Source of the DNA: Aphanocapsa lilacina HA4352-LM1
Lineage (GTDB): Bacteria > Cyanobacteriota > Cyanobacteriia > Gloeobacterales > Gloeobacteraceae
DNA: 64,000 nucleotides
Assembly (NCBI GenBank): GCA_019359725.1
Contig: JAHHGR010000017.1
Coordinates: forward strand, 633-64,632
Reading direction: 5' to 3'
Under the pieces are notes generated by a model, which had not been told where the DNA came from, searched no databases, and saw only the letters and a list, made by a program, of their open reading frames with translations. Below, one piece after another: positions 4,312 through 13,136 of this stretch; within the stretch, counting starts at the first letter, position 1, and every line of letters starts with the position of its first letter. The position numbers and the translations under genes are program-made.

Positions 4312-4339
4312 ACCGGACAAGAGGTATCGGGTGGATGCA

Positions 4340-4368
4340 GGGGTGCGCTTCGTCGCACCCCTTTTTTT
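4340..4368 (+). terminator. Rho-independent terminator after ndhH
   Basis: GGGGTGCG-CTTCGT-CGCACCCC followed by T7. Confidence 0.85.
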
Positions 4369-4497: not shown

Positions 4498-7200
4498 TTA
4501 TTGGGCGCTTTTTAAGGCTTTCTCGATCGCCGGCAGGGACAACCTGTAGCCTTCCGTTTCGTCGCTGAGCCGTCCCTGACTGCGCAACCGCAACAGTACC
4601 TCCCTCCCCATCAGAAGGTTGCGGCGCTCTGGTATCCGCACCCGCCGCTGGGCCATAGCGAGGTTGTAGAGCGCGTGGGCGTGAGCCTGGCCATGGAGCG
4701 AAGACCCGGTCAATCCCCAGACACGAGCACATAGATCGGCGGCTTGTGCGGACAACCGCAAACTCTCGGCCGCCTGAGCGCGGGTGGCAGCCAACTCCGC
4801 CTGCGCTCCCAGGACCGAGGCGAACCTGCTGAGATGTTCGATGTTGGCGCCGTCAATCTCACCAAGGCGGCGCAAGGTCTGGAAAGCGTATACCAGCGAC
4901 CCTTCGGCCTCGGCCGTTTTGCCCTGCTTGATCAGCACCTGGGCCAGCATCCAGGCGAGATCGGCACAGAGGGTGTTCACCTCCGCATTGTCGATTTTCT
5001 GTTGCTGCAACATTTTGCCGAGGGCCAAGGCTTCGCGATACTGGGAAATCGCCAGGGCAGTCTCGCGGCGGGCCGTGTGCAGATTAGCGAGCGCACCTAG
5101 CCCGCCCATCAGGTTTTGCCGCACACCGACGTCGGCGGGGTCAGCTGCGAGGAGCTGCCGTTGCCATTGCACCCCTTCGCGATACAGCTCCAGGGCGGCT
5201 TTTTGCTGGCCCTGCTGCTCGGCGCACCAACCGGCGTTCTGCAGCCCGATAGCCTGGCGACGCCACAGCAAAGGATGTCCGGCTGCTCCCTGACGCGCGC
5301 GGCGGTGCATCTGCAGAGCTTCGCGATAGCGCTCGCAGCCGCGGTCGACTTGACCCGCGGCGTAGTGCATGTCCGCCAGTCGTTCAAGGCCGATGGCGTG
5401 GGCGGAGTAGGCCTCCGCCGTACCTTCACCGTGGGCAAGCGAGTCTTGGTAGATGCCGGCGCTGCGCAGATAGAGGGTTTTAGCCTCCGCCAGCTTGCCG
5501 CCGTTATAAAAAATATCCCCCTGGCGCTGCAGGAGGTTGGCCAGATTGCGGCGGTGCGTTGCCGGGGCACCGGGGGCACCGGCTGCCGCTTCGGCGAACG
5601 GCCGGGCCCACCGGTAGAGGCGCTCCGCCTGCTCCGCCTGTCCGGTGTCCCGCAGGACATCCCCCAGTTCCACCAGCGCTGCGGCCAGCACCGCCTTGTC
5701 CTGGGGGGTCGAACCCGCGTCGCCCGCCAAGGCCCGGGCCTGGCGCACGGCAAGGGTGGCCCGCTTAGAAGCGCGGCGATAATCGCCGAGTTGGCGGTAA
5801 GCCTGGGAGAGCACCCGATTCGCCTCGGCGCTCTGCCGCTGCAGCTCGGCGGTGGTTCCTCCCTGGACATTCACCTCGTCGAAAATCTCGCCGGCGCGGA
5901 CCAACAGTCCCAGGCGGCTTTGCGTCGGACCGAGCATTTGGCCAAGCCCCCCAGCCATCTCGTGCACCATCGAATTGGCGGCCCGCACCGCCAGGTCCCG
6001 CTGGATTTGGGCGGAGCGCGCCTGCCACCCGGCCGCCGCCATCCCCCCCGCCAGCGAAAGGACTACCAAACCCGCCGCCGCCACGGCCGCTTTGTTCCTG
6101 CCCACGAACTTGCCCGTGCGGTAGCGCCAGGTGTCCTCCCGAGCTGCGACGGGCAACCCCTCCAGGTGGCGCTCGATGTCCCGGACCAATTGATCCACCG
6201 AACCGTAGCGCCGGGCCGGTTCCTTGCGCAGCGCCATCAGGACGATGTTGTCGAGGTCGCCTTGCAAAGCCCGCCGCCAAAGTGCCCCGGTGGCGCTGGG
6301 CTTTTGCGGTTCTTCGTAGTGGATCGCCTGCAAAAAAGCCTGGGGATCCTCCTCTGCGCTCACCCGGTAGGGGGACCGCCCGGTGAGCAGTTCGTACAAC
6401 AGCACCCCCAGCGAGTAGACGTCGCTTGCCGTGGTGACAGTCCCGCCGCGCAACTGTTCGGGGCTTGCGTGGGTGGGGGTGAGCATGCGGGCGAGCGTCG
6501 CCGTCGGCTGCGGCACGGATCCACCCGCGGGTACGTCGAGCAGCTTGGCGATGCCAAAATCCAGCAGCTTCGGTTCACCCGCAGTTGTCACCAGGATATT
6601 GCCGGGCTTGATATCGCGGTGGACGATCAGGTTCTGGTGGGCGTACTGGAGCGCGGCGCCCACGCGGCAGAAGAGCTTGAGCCGCTCGCTAAGCGGGAGA
6701 TTGCGCCTGCGGCAGTACTCGTCGATGGGCACGCCCTCGACATATTCCATCACCAGGTAGGGCAGCCCCTCCCGCGTCGTACCGCCGTCGAGCAACCGGG
6801 CAATGTTGGGGTGTTCGAGGTTGGCCAACAGCTGCCTTTCGATCTGAAAACGTTCCACCAGATGGGCGGATTCCCCACCGGGCCGGATCAACTTGATGGC
6901 CACCTGCTTGCGAAATTGCTCGTCGGCCCGATCGGCCAGATACACCACGCTCATCCCACCCCGGCCAATTTCGCGCAGCACCCGGTAGGCCCCGAGCCGC
7001 GCACCGACCACCGAAAAGACGGGCGCCTCCAAAAAGTTTTCGGCCCGCTCGTGCCAGGCAAGCAACGACTCGACCTCCGCCCGCAGCGCCGCATCTTCGG
7101 GAGCCAGGTTGTGGAGAAAGGCCGAACGCTCGGTAGAATCCAGCTCGACCGCCCGGTCGAATAGGGCACCGACCCGCTGCCATTTTTCGAAGGTATTCAC
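4498..7200 (-). CDS. Membrane-anchored Hanks-type Ser/Thr kinase with C-terminal TPR-like region (ECF-associated type)
   Basis: IGRGGMSVVY, VAIK, HRDIKPGN, DFGIAK, ASPEQ; TM segment AAVAAAGLVVLSLAGGMAAAGW; helical repeats follow. The GTG at 7200 overlaps the sigma factor TGA. Confidence 0.9.
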   Translation of the reverse strand: MNTFEKWQRVGALFDRAVELDSTERSAFLHNLAPEDAALRAEVESLLAWHERAENFLEAPVFSVVGARLGAYRVLREIGRGGMSVVYLADRADEQFRKQVAIKLIRPGGESAHLVERFQIERQLLANLEHPNIARLLDGGTTREGLPYLVMEYVEGVPIDEYCRRRNLPLSERLKLFCRVGAALQYAHQNLIVHRDIKPGNILVTTAGEPKLLDFGIAKLLDVPAGGSVPQPTATLARMLTPTHASPEQLRGGTVTTASDVYSLGVLLYELLTGRSPYRVSAEEDPQAFLQAIHYEEPQKPSATGALWRRALQGDLDNIVLMALRKEPARRYGSVDQLVRDIERHLEGLPVAAREDTWRYRTGKFVGRNKAAVAAAGLVVLSLAGGMAAAGWQARSAQIQRDLAVRAANSMVHEMAGGLGQMLGPTQSRLGLLVRAGEIFDEVNVQGGTTAELQRQSAEANRVLSQAYRQLGDYRRASKRATLAVRQARALAGDAGSTPQDKAVLAAALVELGDVLRDTGQAEQAERLYRWARPFAEAAAGAPGAPATHRRNLANLLQRQGDIFYNGGKLAEAKTLYLRSAGIYQDSLAHGEGTAEAYSAHAIGLERLADMHYAAGQVDRGCERYREALQMHRRARQGAAGHPLLWRRQAIGLQNAGWCAEQQGQQKAALELYREGVQWQRQLLAADPADVGVRQNLMGGLGALANLHTARRETALAISQYREALALGKMLQQQKIDNAEVNTLCADLAWMLAQVLIKQGKTAEAEGSLVYAFQTLRRLGEIDGANIEHLSRFASVLGAQAELAATRAQAAESLRLSAQAADLCARVWGLTGSSLHGQAHAHALYNLAMAQRRVRIPERRNLLMGREVLLRLRSQGRLSDETEGYRLSLPAIEKALKSAQ

Positions 7201-7793
7201 CCTTGCAGTTCCCGCGCCAGCCATGCCTTTGCGAGCATCCAGCGCCGTTTTACCGTCGCAACGGAGATGCCCAATTCCTGGGCAACCATTTCGATGGTGA
7301 ACCCTCCGAAGTAGCGCAGCTCAACGATCCGGCCCAGCTGCTCGTCGAGCGCCGTTAACCTTTGCAACGCCGCGTGCAGGGCGAGCAACTCCTCGTCGTT
7401 TTCGAGCGCCATCAACCCCTCCTCAGAACCGTTCGCAGCGATTTCTCCCGCTGTATCCAGGGGAATATGCACAAAACCGCCTCCGCGTTTTTCCGCCTGG
7501 CGTTTGCGGGCGTAGTCCACCAGGGCGTGGCGCATGGCCCGGGCCGCGACCGCATAAAAATGGTGGCGACCCTGCCAGGCCGGAACGCGCTTTTGATCGA
7601 CCAGCCTCAGGTACGCTTCATTGAGCAGGGCAGTCGCCTGCAAGGTGAGATGGGTCCGTCTGTAGCTTGTGCAGCGATTGGCGAGTACATGCAATTGCTC
7701 GTAAATGAGCGGATAGAGCCTGTCGAGGGCTTGCCGGTCGCCGCTGCTCCACTGCTGAAGTAGCAGGGTCACATCGTTGTCGCAAGGTTTCAC
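7197..7793 (-). CDS. ECF sigma factor, ECF43-like (TIGR02999-type)
   Basis: DVTLLLQQWSSGDRQALDRLYPLIYEQL, TLQATALLNEAYLRL, ALVDYARKRQAEKRGGG, IVELRYFGG, TVKRRWMLAKAWL; GTG start assumed at 7793. Confidence 0.88.
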   Translation of the reverse strand: MKPCDNDVTLLLQQWSSGDRQALDRLYPLIYEQLHVLANRCTSYRRTHLTLQATALLNEAYLRLVDQKRVPAWQGRHHFYAVAARAMRHALVDYARKRQAEKRGGGFVHIPLDTAGEIAANGSEEGLMALENDEELLALHAALQRLTALDEQLGRIVELRYFGGFTIEMVAQELGISVATVKRRWMLAKAWLARELQG

Positions 7794-8085
7794 CGAGGGT
7801 CTCTCAACGAGTACTGGTATGGAAAGATTGACATGTTGTGTTGATTTTTGATCGTCCCTTGAGCCGAAGCGCCACGACGCCCGGTTGCCTGTTCGCGCCT
7901 GCCAACTGCACAAAGACACTAGAGTCGATTGAAAAAATTTATGCACCGACAGCTACAGGAACGCTGCGATACGCCATAGCGCCCCGAAGACCCGTTTGCA
8001 GGAGCTGGGCTTTCTTTGACTGCCGATGTGGACCGGTGTGCACTGGACAGGCAAACCGGCAAGCTTTAGACGTCTGTGTCGCTGA

Positions 8086-9894
8086 CTAGCGGTTTGAGGA
8101 GATGTTGATCGATTCGTTGATGTTGCGGATGGTGCGCTGGCCTTCGCGTTCGAGGGCCACCTCGATCGTGCCGCCCGGGACGTTGATGTTTTTGCCGATC
8201 TGCACGGTCGCTTCGTAGAAACCGGGGGTGATTTCCTTCATGGTGATCGGGCCGGTATAACCCAGGATACGGAAGGTGGCCTTGCCGCCGCCGTCGCCTT
8301 CGAGCGAGACGGTGAGCACATCGCCGCTGTGGAGCACCCGGTTGGCCGGATCGACGCTCACCTGGCGGATGCGCAGGCGATTGGGACGCTGCACCGGGTC
8401 GAAGGGCGAAGGCGGACTGAACAAATCGCCGCTGCTGCGGCGGGTGATGATGGGCGGGTTGCCGTAGCCAGGGGTGCCGAAGGTACTGGAGCCGGGAGGG
8501 CGGGTGCCGTAGGGACTGGTACCAAAGCTGCCGCCCAGGCTGCCGGGACGGGTGCCGTAGGGACTGGTACCAAAGCTGCCGCCCAGGCTGCCGGGACGGG
8601 TGCCGTAGGGGTTCGGATTGCCGTAGCCGTAGCCGCCGCGGGTGCTGTAGCTGTCGAAACTGCCCGAGACACCCGCACTGTTGTTCGGGGGCGGGACGGC
8701 CGGGAAGCCGTCGTCGTCGTAGGCGGAGCGGGGGCTGCTGCTTGGGGCGGCGGCTGAACGCGAGCCGTAGCTGTTGTCGAAGCCGCCGGCCCGCCGCCCC
8801 GACTGCGAGGGCATCGGAGGCAGCTCGTCGTCGGGGTAGGTATCCCTCGGAGCCTGGGCGGTGCGGGTGTTGCCCACCTCCAGCTTGGCGATGCGCTGGG
8901 CCTGGGTGGCGAGGCCACCCCGGTCGAGGCGTACCGTTACCGTCGGGTTGATAATGGCGTCTTTGTCGGTGACTTTGTAAGTACCGGTGTATTCACCGGG
9001 GCTACTCTCCTGCATCGCCACGTCGGTTGCCAGATCCGCCAGATCGAACTTGGCCTGGGCGCCGGGGGTGCCCTTGGCCGTCACCGTCACCGCCTGGCCG
9101 GGGGTGACCTTGGCGTCCGGCTGCACCTGAATCGAGGCGATCGTCGGCCGCTCGATCTTGATCTGGGCGACCGGGGCCTCCACCGCCGCCAGCTTCTTCT
9201 GGTAGACGAGCGACTGGTGCATCAGCACCGCCACTTCGCCGCGGGTGAGGACATCGTCGGGGCCGAGCTTTTTGGCGTCGGGCACGTTGACCACCAATCC
9301 CGCCTGGGCGGCGGCGGCGATAAATTCGCGCCCCGCCTGCGGTACAGAAGCGGTGTCGCTGTACAGACCCAGCCAGCTTTCGACCGCCGGTTTAGAAGGT
9401 GCAGCCAGCTTGAGGGCGCGCCCGAAGATGGCGAGTGCCTCCAGGCGGGTGAGATCGCCCTGGGGCTTAAACAGACTGCCCGGATAGGTGGACATCACCC
9501 CGGCCTGCAGTAGCGCCTGGACGTTGAGATAATCGGGGCTATTTTTGGGCACATCTTTGATCGGTGTGTCCTTCTTCTTGGCGACGGGCCGGATTTCAAA
9601 AACGTTCGTAAGCCAACGGGCCAGCTCGATGCGGCTCATCGTCGCATCGAGGGATTCCCCCAGGATGATGAGATCGCTTTTGCTCTGCACCGCCTCGGCG
9701 TAAGGCTTCGTCCAGCGCACGTCCAGCTCGTCGCTCGCAGGGGCCGATGGGGCCGGAGCGAGGGAGGGCAACTCCGGCGGCGGGGCGCTGTCGGTTTTTG
9801 GGGAGGTCCCAGGAGGCTCCTGGGCAAGCGCCTGGGAGATGCTCCCGCACAACCCCAGCCACAAACCCACATGTACAACCCAGTTGCGTTTCAT
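8086..9894 (-). CDS. Secreted S-layer homology (SLH) domain protein with two Ig-like domains and a low-complexity linker
   Basis: Signal peptide; SLH motifs IKDVPKNSPDY...LTRLEAL and YSDTASVP...LTRGEVA; two similar beta-rich domains separated by a G/S/P/Y/R-rich region. Confidence 0.8.
   Translation of the reverse strand: MKRNWVVHVGLWLGLCGSISQALAQEPPGTSPKTDSAPPPELPSLAPAPSAPASDELDVRWTKPYAEAVQSKSDLIILGESLDATMSRIELARWLTNVFEIRPVAKKKDTPIKDVPKNSPDYLNVQALLQAGVMSTYPGSLFKPQGDLTRLEALAIFGRALKLAAPSKPAVESWLGLYSDTASVPQAGREFIAAAAQAGLVVNVPDAKKLGPDDVLTRGEVAVLMHQSLVYQKKLAAVEAPVAQIKIERPTIASIQVQPDAKVTPGQAVTVTAKGTPGAQAKFDLADLATDVAMQESSPGEYTGTYKVTDKDAIINPTVTVRLDRGGLATQAQRIAKLEVGNTRTAQAPRDTYPDDELPPMPSQSGRRAGGFDNSYGSRSAAAPSSSPRSAYDDDGFPAVPPPNNSAGVSGSFDSYSTRGGYGYGNPNPYGTRPGSLGGSFGTSPYGTRPGSLGGSFGTSPYGTRPPGSSTFGTPGYGNPPIITRRSSGDLFSPPSPFDPVQRPNRLRIRQVSVDPANRVLHSGDVLTVSLEGDGGGKATFRILGYTGPITMKEITPGFYEATVQIGKNINVPGGTIEVALEREGQRTIRNINESINISSNR
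8501..8610. repeat. 48-bp tandem repeat (2 full copies plus 14 bp) encoding GTRPGSLGGSFGTSPY
   Basis: CGGGTGCCGTAGGGACTGGTACCAAAGCTGCCGCCCAGGCTGCCGGGA at 8501 and 8549, with a partial copy at 8597. Confidence 0.95.
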
Positions 9895-12119: not shown

Positions 12120-12869
12120 ATGGCAAACTTGCCTTTTCTGTTCGTCAGCGATCTCGACGATACCCTGGTCGGTTCGCATCCTGAGGACCGCGAGGCGCTG
12201 CGGGCGCTCAACGCGATCCTCGCCGAGCCGAAGATCACCATGGTCTATGCCACCGGGCGCTCCCCGGCTTCGGCTTTGACCCTGATCGCCGAAGCTGAAT
12301 TGTTAATTCCTGATGCCCTGGTGACCAGTGTCGGGACGGCTATCTACTATTTTGAAGATCCCGATAGGCCGGATTATCAGTGGTGGGAGCATCTAAAAGA
12401 CGGGTGGCAAACGGAGGCCATCGAAGCTGTCGCCGGACTCTTCCCCGAACTGCGGCCCCAACCTGCAGCTGAGCAAGGCCCATTCAAGCGTAGTTACTTT
12501 CTTGATGCCATCCACAGCCACCGCATCGGTGAACTCGAAGAACAGCTACAAAAGGCACAATTGCAGACGCGCGTGGTTTACTCCAGCTTCCGCGATCTCG
12601 ATATTCTGCCTGCTAAGGGTACCAAGGGCTCGGCGGTGCGCTATCTGCAGGAGCGCTGGAATTTTGACAACCGAAGTACAGTGGTCTGCGGTGATTCCGG
12701 CAACGATCAAAGCCTCTTTGAGACCGGCAACCTGGGGATCGCCGTCGGCAACGCCCGCAGCGAATTGGTCGCGTGGATGGCGGGGCAACCGAAGCTACCT
12801 ATCTACGCTGCGAAGGCCCGCTGTGCTGAAGGCATTGCCGAAGGCTTGCGCCACTGGCAGCTCATCTGA
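12120..12869 (+). CDS. spp: Sucrose-phosphate phosphatase (HAD IIB)
   Basis: FVSDLDDTL, YATGRS, QGPFKRSYF, LDILPAKGTKGSA, VVCGDSGND. Confidence 0.85.
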   Translation: MANLPFLFVSDLDDTLVGSHPEDREALRALNAILAEPKITMVYATGRSPASALTLIAEAELLIPDALVTSVGTAIYYFEDPDRPDYQWWEHLKDGWQTEAIEAVAGLFPELRPQPAAEQGPFKRSYFLDAIHSHRIGELEEQLQKAQLQTRVVYSSFRDLDILPAKGTKGSAVRYLQERWNFDNRSTVVCGDSGNDQSLFETGNLGIAVGNARSELVAWMAGQPKLPIYAAKARCAEGIAEGLRHWQLI

Positions 12870-12890
12870 ACGGCGCGGCGCACCATCGAT

Positions 12891-13136
12891 TTATCTCACC
12901 ACGTATTTGCTCAGATCCAGACCCGCTTCTTTGGCTAAGGCCTGCAGGCTGCGGTGCTCAAGGGTCTTGATCGCTTTGGTCGAAAGCTTCAAGCGCACGA
13001 AGCAACCCTGCTGGTCATCCCAGATTCGTTTCCATTGCAGGTTGGCCATCTGCAGACGCTTGTTGCGGCGGTGGGAAAAAGAGACGCTGTAGGCGTTATT
13101 GGCTTTTTTGCCGGTGAGCATGCACTTGCGAGACAT
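12891..13136 (-). CDS. rpmB: 50S ribosomal protein L28
   Basis: [39 protein letters not shown]. Confidence 0.95.

Follow-up and report, generated by a model that had tools for sequence, protein, structure and literature searches.

A 64,000-nucleotide stretch of contig JAHHGR010000017.1 from the cyanobacterium Aphanocapsa lilacina HA4352-LM1 (hereafter the window) carries on its minus strand two overlapping genes, the first for an extracytoplasmic function (ECF) sigma factor and the second for a membrane-anchored Hanks-type Ser/Thr kinase. The two genes are likely to form an ECF43-type module, in which the membrane kinase would activate the sigma factor by phosphorylating Thr54. The evidence computed here comprises the gene structure, the domains, the replacement of a sigma factor motif, the homology to the EcfK/PknS pair of Xanthomonas citri, the linkage of sigma factor and kinase across the family and the phyletic distribution. 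The Sigma70_ECF-only sigma factors of Gloeobacter are thereby identified as apparently kinase-activated ECF43-type proteins, each accompanied by a PknS-like receptor kinase, and the module cleanly marks regulation that is lineage-specific and probably of horizontal origin in the oxygenic phototrophs that branch earliest. The mechanism as such is not new: the module is common in Acidobacteriota, Planctomycetota and other phyla, and its workings have been analysed in detail in Vibrio and Xanthomonas. What the finding offers is a correct insight at the level of annotation, together with a neat phyletic pattern; unusual is only the near-restriction of the module, within the cyanobacteria, to the Gloeobacter group.

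The acidic (D/E)AED patch of region 2.2 is what ECF sigma factors use to hold on to the beta-prime clamp helices of the polymerase. In the window sigma factor, region 2.2 reads HLTLQATALLNEAY, and in an alignment with the four canonical ECF sigma factors of the same genome the residues Q52-A53-T54-A55 fall on EAED (DRSD in one of them). The protein scores 191.5 bits against TIGR02999 (curated cut-off 126.15) and 179.5 bits against PF07638 (E 8e-53, with profile positions 2-184 of 185 covered), and it passes the general ECF model TIGR02937 at 66.8 bits. PF07638 separates the two kinds of sigma factor within the genome, giving 22-29 bits for the canonical ECFs versus 167-191 bits for four kinase-linked sigma factors. 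Across a family alignment of 107 TIGR02999-type members from Gloeobacterales and other phyla, the column of Thr54 is threonine in 102 of 106 sequences (23/23 from Gloeobacterales and 79/83 from elsewhere), and acidic residues are almost absent from the motif, with D or E in at most two of the 83 non-Gloeobacterales sequences at each position. The same replacement has been described for ECF43, in which DAED gives way to uncharged residues with the consensus QTTA and the phosphorylated Thr is kept in 88% of members (PMC13147305).

The predicted phospho-acceptor can also be compared with a mapped one. The EcfK phosphopeptide AGLQATELVHEAWMR (supplement of PMC13147305) matches residues 51-63 of the window sigma factor in a gapless alignment, which puts EcfK T51 on Thr54, and the alignment scores 41 against a maximum of 34 among 500 shuffles. 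From the shared motif together with this peptide match, ECF43 would correspond to the TIGR02999/PF07638 family. The second EcfK peptide of interest, from the linker around T106, is not mappable onto the window sigma factor and scores below the shuffle mean. The window linker has P111-L112-D113-T114 in a conserved patch after KRGGG (KRGGG-x5-L-[DE]); of 24 Gloeobacterales copies, 23 have D or E at position 113, and position 114 is mostly E or D, with T in only two of those 24 sequences.

In the kinase, the Hanks motifs are all in place: GRGGMSVV (G-loop, residues 79-86), VAIK (100-103), HRDIKPGN (194-201), DFG (214-216), SPE (246-248) and DVYSLG (260-265). The C-terminal region beyond the single transmembrane helix has matches to the tetratricopeptide repeat (TPR) models TPR_2 and TPR_12 above the Pfam cut-offs. 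Because the flank on the N-side of the helix is rich in Lys and Arg, the positive-inside rule would place these approximately 500 residues outside the cytoplasm, in the periplasm. Of all PDB chains, 9EED matches best (E 2.3e-56), followed by PknB (4e-43); 9EED is PknS(1-364) of X. citri, which phosphorylates EcfK. The alignment with 9EED spans kinase residues 6 to 346 and thus begins inside the N-terminal extension, which argues that the segment of approximately 66 residues before the kinase domain is homologous to the extension of PknS. That extension is conserved, and its role was left open by the authors who described it (PMC13147305); no Pfam model matches it in the sigma-linked kinases. 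Its consensus in 78 sigma-adjacent kinases is W-x17-R-x7-C-x2-D-x2-LR-x-EV-x2-LL ... FL-x2-P, built on W7, R25, C33, D36, L39, R40, E42, V43, L46, L47, F56 and P60, and the window kinase carries Ala at the usually conserved Cys33.

These results bear out what a sequence-only reading of the window had proposed for the two proteins. The GTGA overlap at 7197-7200 agrees with the coordinates of the open reading frames (ORFs), the Thr54 codon of the sigma ORF lies at 7632-7634, and the acidic DAED motif is indeed missing, with QATA opposite the EAED of the canonical ECFs of the same genome. The proposed ECF43-like character finds support in the TIGR02999/PF07638 match, the uncharged motif and the position of T54 on EcfK T51. 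The intact catalytic motifs, single transmembrane segment and long TPR-like C terminus claimed for the kinase were recovered by motif inspection, hydropathy and Pfam TPR matches. The claim that no anti-sigma gene is present agrees with the domain content of the neighbours, given that the genes around the pair encode SLH, DUF2808, NdhH and Methyltransf_28 domains and no anti-sigma domain.

The same reading had treated a single pair, and here only part of it stands: the pair is real, but the genome has four such paralogous pairs, which belong to a family shared by the Gloeobacter group. The genome (4.2 Mb, 62% GC) encodes four TIGR02999 sigma factors, all with HTLQ[AP]TAL, and 4/4 adjoin a kinase of one subfamily, with kinase domains that are 52-54% identical. 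Family-wide, a kinase gene lies within 300 nt of the sigma gene in 78 of the 107 loci, and in the 80 loci from other phyla a kinase gene of the same type usually comes tens of bases or less after the sigma gene. Sigma and kinase distances are correlated across pairs (Mantel r 0.38, p 0.001), which indicates that the pairs diversify as units. In a first Mantel comparison with the sigma factor the extension gave 0.38 versus 0.15 for the kinase domain. A special co-evolution of the extension with the sigma factor was nevertheless rejected, given that its r of 0.42 falls within the range for kinase-domain pieces of the same length (0.29-0.44), and the comparison therefore gives no specific evidence for the extension as a docking surface.

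Elsewhere in the genome, kinase genes of this type are also found split, as a remnant or without a sigma gene. On contig C41 (2858-5493) the kinase gene beside a sigma paralog is split into two overlapping ORFs of 484 aa (kinase) and 440 aa (TPR), compared with 919 aa for the intact ortholog in genome G404; either a frameshift has made it a pseudogene or the assembly is at fault. A remnant on contig C2 (88201-88893) consists of the N-terminal extension and the first approximately 44 residues of the kinase domain. On contig C23 (11562-12320) a full kinase of the sigma-linked subfamily (49% identical) is encoded as an orphan, away from any sigma gene.

The phyletic distribution was called at the TIGR02999 cut-off in a phylum draw of 401 genomes spread evenly and in a class draw of 401 genomes. 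In the phylum-wide draw the family was found in the window's own genome and in 0/400 others. Within the taxonomic family of the window genome, all seven genomes carry 1-5 copies, and in the order Gloeobacterales 8 of 14 genomes have it. The other Cyanobacteriia contribute 1/387, an 800-contig metagenome-assembled genome with 8% contamination (G576:C152:1618-2145, 156 bits), and this match may come from a contaminant contig or reflect a transfer of its own. Among the cyanobacteria sampled, the module is essentially confined to the early-branching Gloeobacterales. Contamination of a metagenome-assembled genome as the source of the module was rejected, given that two complete single-contig congeners (4,659,019 and 4,724,791 bp) carry 2-5 copies; it is also contradicted by the cyanobacterial ndhH and DUF2808 genes on the window contig.

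Outside the order, the nearest relatives are 43-54% identical and come almost all from Acidobacteriota, with some from Gemmatimonadota, Planctomycetota and others, and in the tree the Gloeobacterales copies fall in several groups within that radiation, the deep nodes being poorly separated. With the nearest outside relatives at approximately 50% identity and mostly acidobacterial, an old horizontal acquisition is suggested, and one old gain is more parsimonious than ancestral presence with repeated loss because neither the non-photosynthetic sister classes nor the rest of the Cyanobacteriia have the module. A recent transfer was rejected: GC content and GC content at third codon positions (GC3) of both genes resemble those of the neighbouring genes, with a GC3 typical of the genome's genes, and any transfer must therefore be old. 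An ancestor of the Gloeobacter group probably obtained the module family from a bacterium living in soil or on rock, an acidobacterium for instance, and duplication and loss then diversified it. A more elaborate scenario is possible but doubtful. It would have ECF43/PknS-type modules taken up ancestrally from a co-habiting bacterium of soil or rock surfaces, for example an acidobacterium, and expanded since then into a small, fast-turnover family (1-5 pairs per genome plus orphan sigma factors and orphan kinases) for a kind of envelope sensing that no other cyanobacterial lineage uses, with the N-terminal extension as the docking site that pairs each kinase with its own sigma factor.

If the pair works as an ECF43-type module, the sigma factor is probably inactive as made, because the acidic (D/E)AED patch for beta-prime clamp binding is missing. 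The co-translated kinase would sit in the membrane with its TPR region in the periplasm and its N-terminal extension and kinase domain in the cytoplasm. An envelope or periplasmic cue sensed through the TPR region would make the kinase autophosphorylate, and the kinase would then phosphorylate Thr54 of the sigma factor and supply the missing negative charge. The phosphorylated sigma factor could join core polymerase, and the resulting holoenzyme would transcribe its regulon. From the work on EcfP/PknT and EcfK/PknS we infer that Thr54 is phosphorylated, that this affects polymerase binding and that the sensor lies in the periplasm.

Several points weigh against this reading. The ECF43-type assignment is supported by TIGR02999, the motif and the kinase homology rather than by ECF group HMMs. 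A consensus scan of the gene strand found no sigma-70-type promoter or terminator, and no sigma-dependent promoter or regulon came to light. The pair is accessory in the genus, being absent from two complete congeneric genomes and having a truncated kinase next to an insertion sequence in a third (G403). In the tree, three label changes are needed and the starred branches allow one, so that one acquisition and several are not separated. Lastly, Thr54 may be neither the sole nor an essential site: EcfK T51A is functional through the linker residue T106, and the window linker is not alignable to that of EcfK. The earlier reading had named a fully active T54A variant as a refutation, and this is not a clean one, given that EcfK T51A is functional in X. 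citri via T106.

That last point leads to the alternative which survives best, although we consider it unlikely. Here the kinase would still control the sigma factor, with Thr54 not decisive and other sites, such as linker T114 (compare EcfK T106), or several sites together taking its place. In EcfK, phosphorylation at five sites depends on PknS, the single variant T51A is functional and it takes the double variant T51A/T106A to abolish function (PMC13147305), and the window sigma factor does have D113-T114 in the conserved KRGGG-x5-L-[DE] patch. However, the near-invariance of Thr54 in the family (102/106) is not matched by position 114, where T is as rare as described above, and the EcfK linker peptide cannot be aligned to the window protein. 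The window motif also has no acidic residue, unlike QATE of EcfK, and in this it resembles EcfP, whose single Thr is essential. The fully uncharged QATA, as opposed to QATE, argues that Thr54 may matter more here than in EcfK, as it does in EcfP.

A decaying or silent accessory locus without present function is very unlikely, although the genus does contain damaged copies. An ortholog of the pair occurs in one congener only, G403, with a sigma factor that is 87% identical and the same SLH and DUF2808 genes upstream; congeners G401 and G402 have no copy of this pair. The G403 kinase ends after residue 770, without the last approximately 130 residues, and abuts a 291-aa transposase-like ORF (G403:C1:3255000-3273000, locus positions 12180-13071). 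Within the window genome itself, the split C41 kinase and the kinase remnant on C2 fit the same explanation. Against it, both window ORFs are full-length and intact, all catalytic and sigma motifs are preserved and GC3 is typical, and the orthologous proteins have stayed 87% identical while the intergenic DNA diverged more.

That the kinase serves mainly as a membrane anchor and anti-sigma factor, with the N-terminal extension sequestering the sigma factor until a signal frees it and phosphorylation being secondary, is so improbable that we give it almost no weight: the helical extension is indeed conserved in the 78 sigma-adjacent kinases, lacks a Pfam family and has a role left open in the PknS paper, but its distances track the sigma factor no better than those of equal-length kinase pieces (r 0.42 vs 0.29-0.44), the family-wide loss of the acidic 2.2 motif is explained by phosphorylation and not by sequestration, and phosphomimetic EcfP and EcfK are active without the kinase (PMC13147305, PMC7826278).

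Among known systems, the sigma factor's predicted phosphorylation by its kinase is best compared with EcfK/PknS of X. citri (ECF43; PMC13147305; PDB 9EED). PknS has the same order of helical extension, Hanks domain, one transmembrane segment and periplasmic TPRs. EcfK shares the motif LQAT-LxxEA, its mapped phosphosite T51 lies opposite window T54, and the genes are likewise adjacent with no anti-sigma gene. EcfK differs in that QATE keeps one acidic residue and a second functional site exists at T106, whereas the window sigma factor has QATA and a linker that is not alignable. The setting also differs: EcfK sits in a type VI secretion system cluster and responds to amoebae, whereas the window pair lies between an SLH-protein gene and ndhH in a cyanobacterial host. 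EcfP/PknT of Vibrio parahaemolyticus (ECF43), compared here by its description in PMC8999054, has a fully uncharged 2.2 motif as well (STTA there, QATA here), with Thr in third place. As summarised in that paper from Iyer et al. 2020, EcfP is intrinsically inactive and is activated by the neighbouring membrane kinase; it differs from the window pair in the role given there, the response and resistance to polymyxin. The groups ECF59, ECF61, ECF62, ECF217, ECF267 and ECF283 (PMC7826278) also have an ECF gene beside a Ser/Thr kinase gene and no anti-sigma gene, but they carry a DAED-like acidic motif or Ser, whereas the window sigma factor matches the ECF43 consensus (PMC7826278). Canonical cyanobacterial ECFs with an anti-sigma factor (e.g. 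SigG/SapG; PMC2758279) are two-domain ECF sigma factors like that of the window, and those of the window genome differ from it in having EAED or DRSD in region 2.2.

A literature search found no published link between ECF43 and cyanobacteria, and this supports the sequence-only reading in its suggestion that the pathway type had not been characterised in this phylum. The Sigma70_ECF-only class was left unexplained in a 2024 survey of sigma factors in cyanobacteria, which doubts that its members work as such. A 2007 survey of Ser/Thr kinases listed Gloeobacter TPR kinases (including glr1096 and glr4072) without noticing the sigma factors, and the positions of congener kinases identified here fit these two genes.

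The coordinates of the pair and of its parts are collected in Table 1. The two ORFs share 4 nt (GTGA, 7200-7197, minus strand) when the kinase is started at GTG 7200. An in-frame ATG at 7224 would lengthen the overlap to 28 nt, and the GTG is favoured over it because 5-9 residues precede the conserved Trp in the paralogs and in PknS. The sigma start at GTG 7793 is conserved in the 87%-identical G403 ortholog; the mechanical ORF reaches 7946, and the stretch beyond GTG 7793 is not conserved there. A GAGAG stretch just upstream of GTG 7793 is conserved in the same ortholog and is possibly the ribosome-binding site.

Table 1 Positions of the sigma factor and kinase genes, their predicted parts and the adjoining upstream region in the window
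Feature	Positions	Strand	Details and basis
ECF sigma factor gene	7197..7793	minus	198 aa from GTG 7793 to TGA 7197; ECF43-like, TIGR02999/PF07638
Membrane Hanks-type Ser/Thr kinase gene, PknS-like	4498..7200	minus	900 aa from GTG 7200; Pkinase E 6e-42
GTGA overlap of sigma stop and kinase start	7197..7200	minus	GTG 7200-7198, TGA 7199-7197; predicted translational coupling; same junction in the G403 ortholog
Codons Q52-A53-T54-A55, uncharged replacement of (D/E)AED in region 2.2	7629..7640	minus	Alignment with the genome's own canonical ECFs; predicted phospho-acceptor Thr54 (7632-7634)
N-terminal extension of the kinase, ~66 aa, predicted helical	7003..7200	minus	Aligns with the PknS extension; no Pfam match
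Kinase catalytic domain, residues 72-333, all Hanks motifs intact	6202..6987	minus	Pkinase match, motif inspection
Single transmembrane helix, residues ~370-393	6022..6093	minus	Hydropathy peak 2.0; N-side flank RYRTGKFVGRNK
Predicted periplasmic TPR-rich sensor region, residues 396-900	4501..6015	minus	TPR_2 41.7 bits, 6 stretches; TPR_12 42 bits, 4 stretches; TPR_8
Non-coding region upstream of the sigma gene	7794..8085	minus	Blocks conserved with the G403 ortholog (two-genome alignment), e.g. TGCATAAATTTT at 7934-7945

Related sigma factors in other genomes show a looser association with their kinases. In G401 (G401:C1:1160000-1176000), the ortholog of the C41 sigma factor reads HTLRPTAL, with Arg for the conserved Gln, and its gene lies approximately 7 kb from that of its kinase, with opposite-strand genes between them (KAS-like, lipoyl-domain E2-like and others). 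G402, G403, G404 and G405 contain orphan ECF43-like sigma factors with no kinase within approximately 7 kb and with neighbours such as a solute-binding protein gene and a recN-like gene; these sigma factors would need phosphorylation in trans, if at all.

Upstream of the pair on the same strand lie a gene for an SLH-domain protein (8086-9894) and a DUF2808 protein gene; downstream, ndhH and a MidA-like methyltransferase gene (Methyltransf_28) run convergently. At the G403 locus the synteny with the window is lost on the ndhH side, and approximately 430 bp of extra DNA separate the SLH gene from the sigma gene.

Searches for a shared promoter used the conserved upstream blocks and the family loci. 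The blocks and a candidate TGCATA-N17-CTAGT occur nowhere else in the genome and give no lead to a regulon, and a shared bipartite promoter (5-mer, N13-19, 4-mer) upstream of the 107 family sigma genes did not rise above the reverse-strand background. GATGCG-N17-ACGC, which a search over whole loci gave in 50 of them, was rejected as a promoter, given that its position, +254, is within the sigma gene, where it codes for the conserved MRRILVDHAR. At the other end of the pair, the 186 bp that separate ndhH from the convergent kinase gene contain a strong GC-rich hairpin followed by a T-run (4339-4362, after ndhH), which may terminate both the ndhH and the kinase transcripts.

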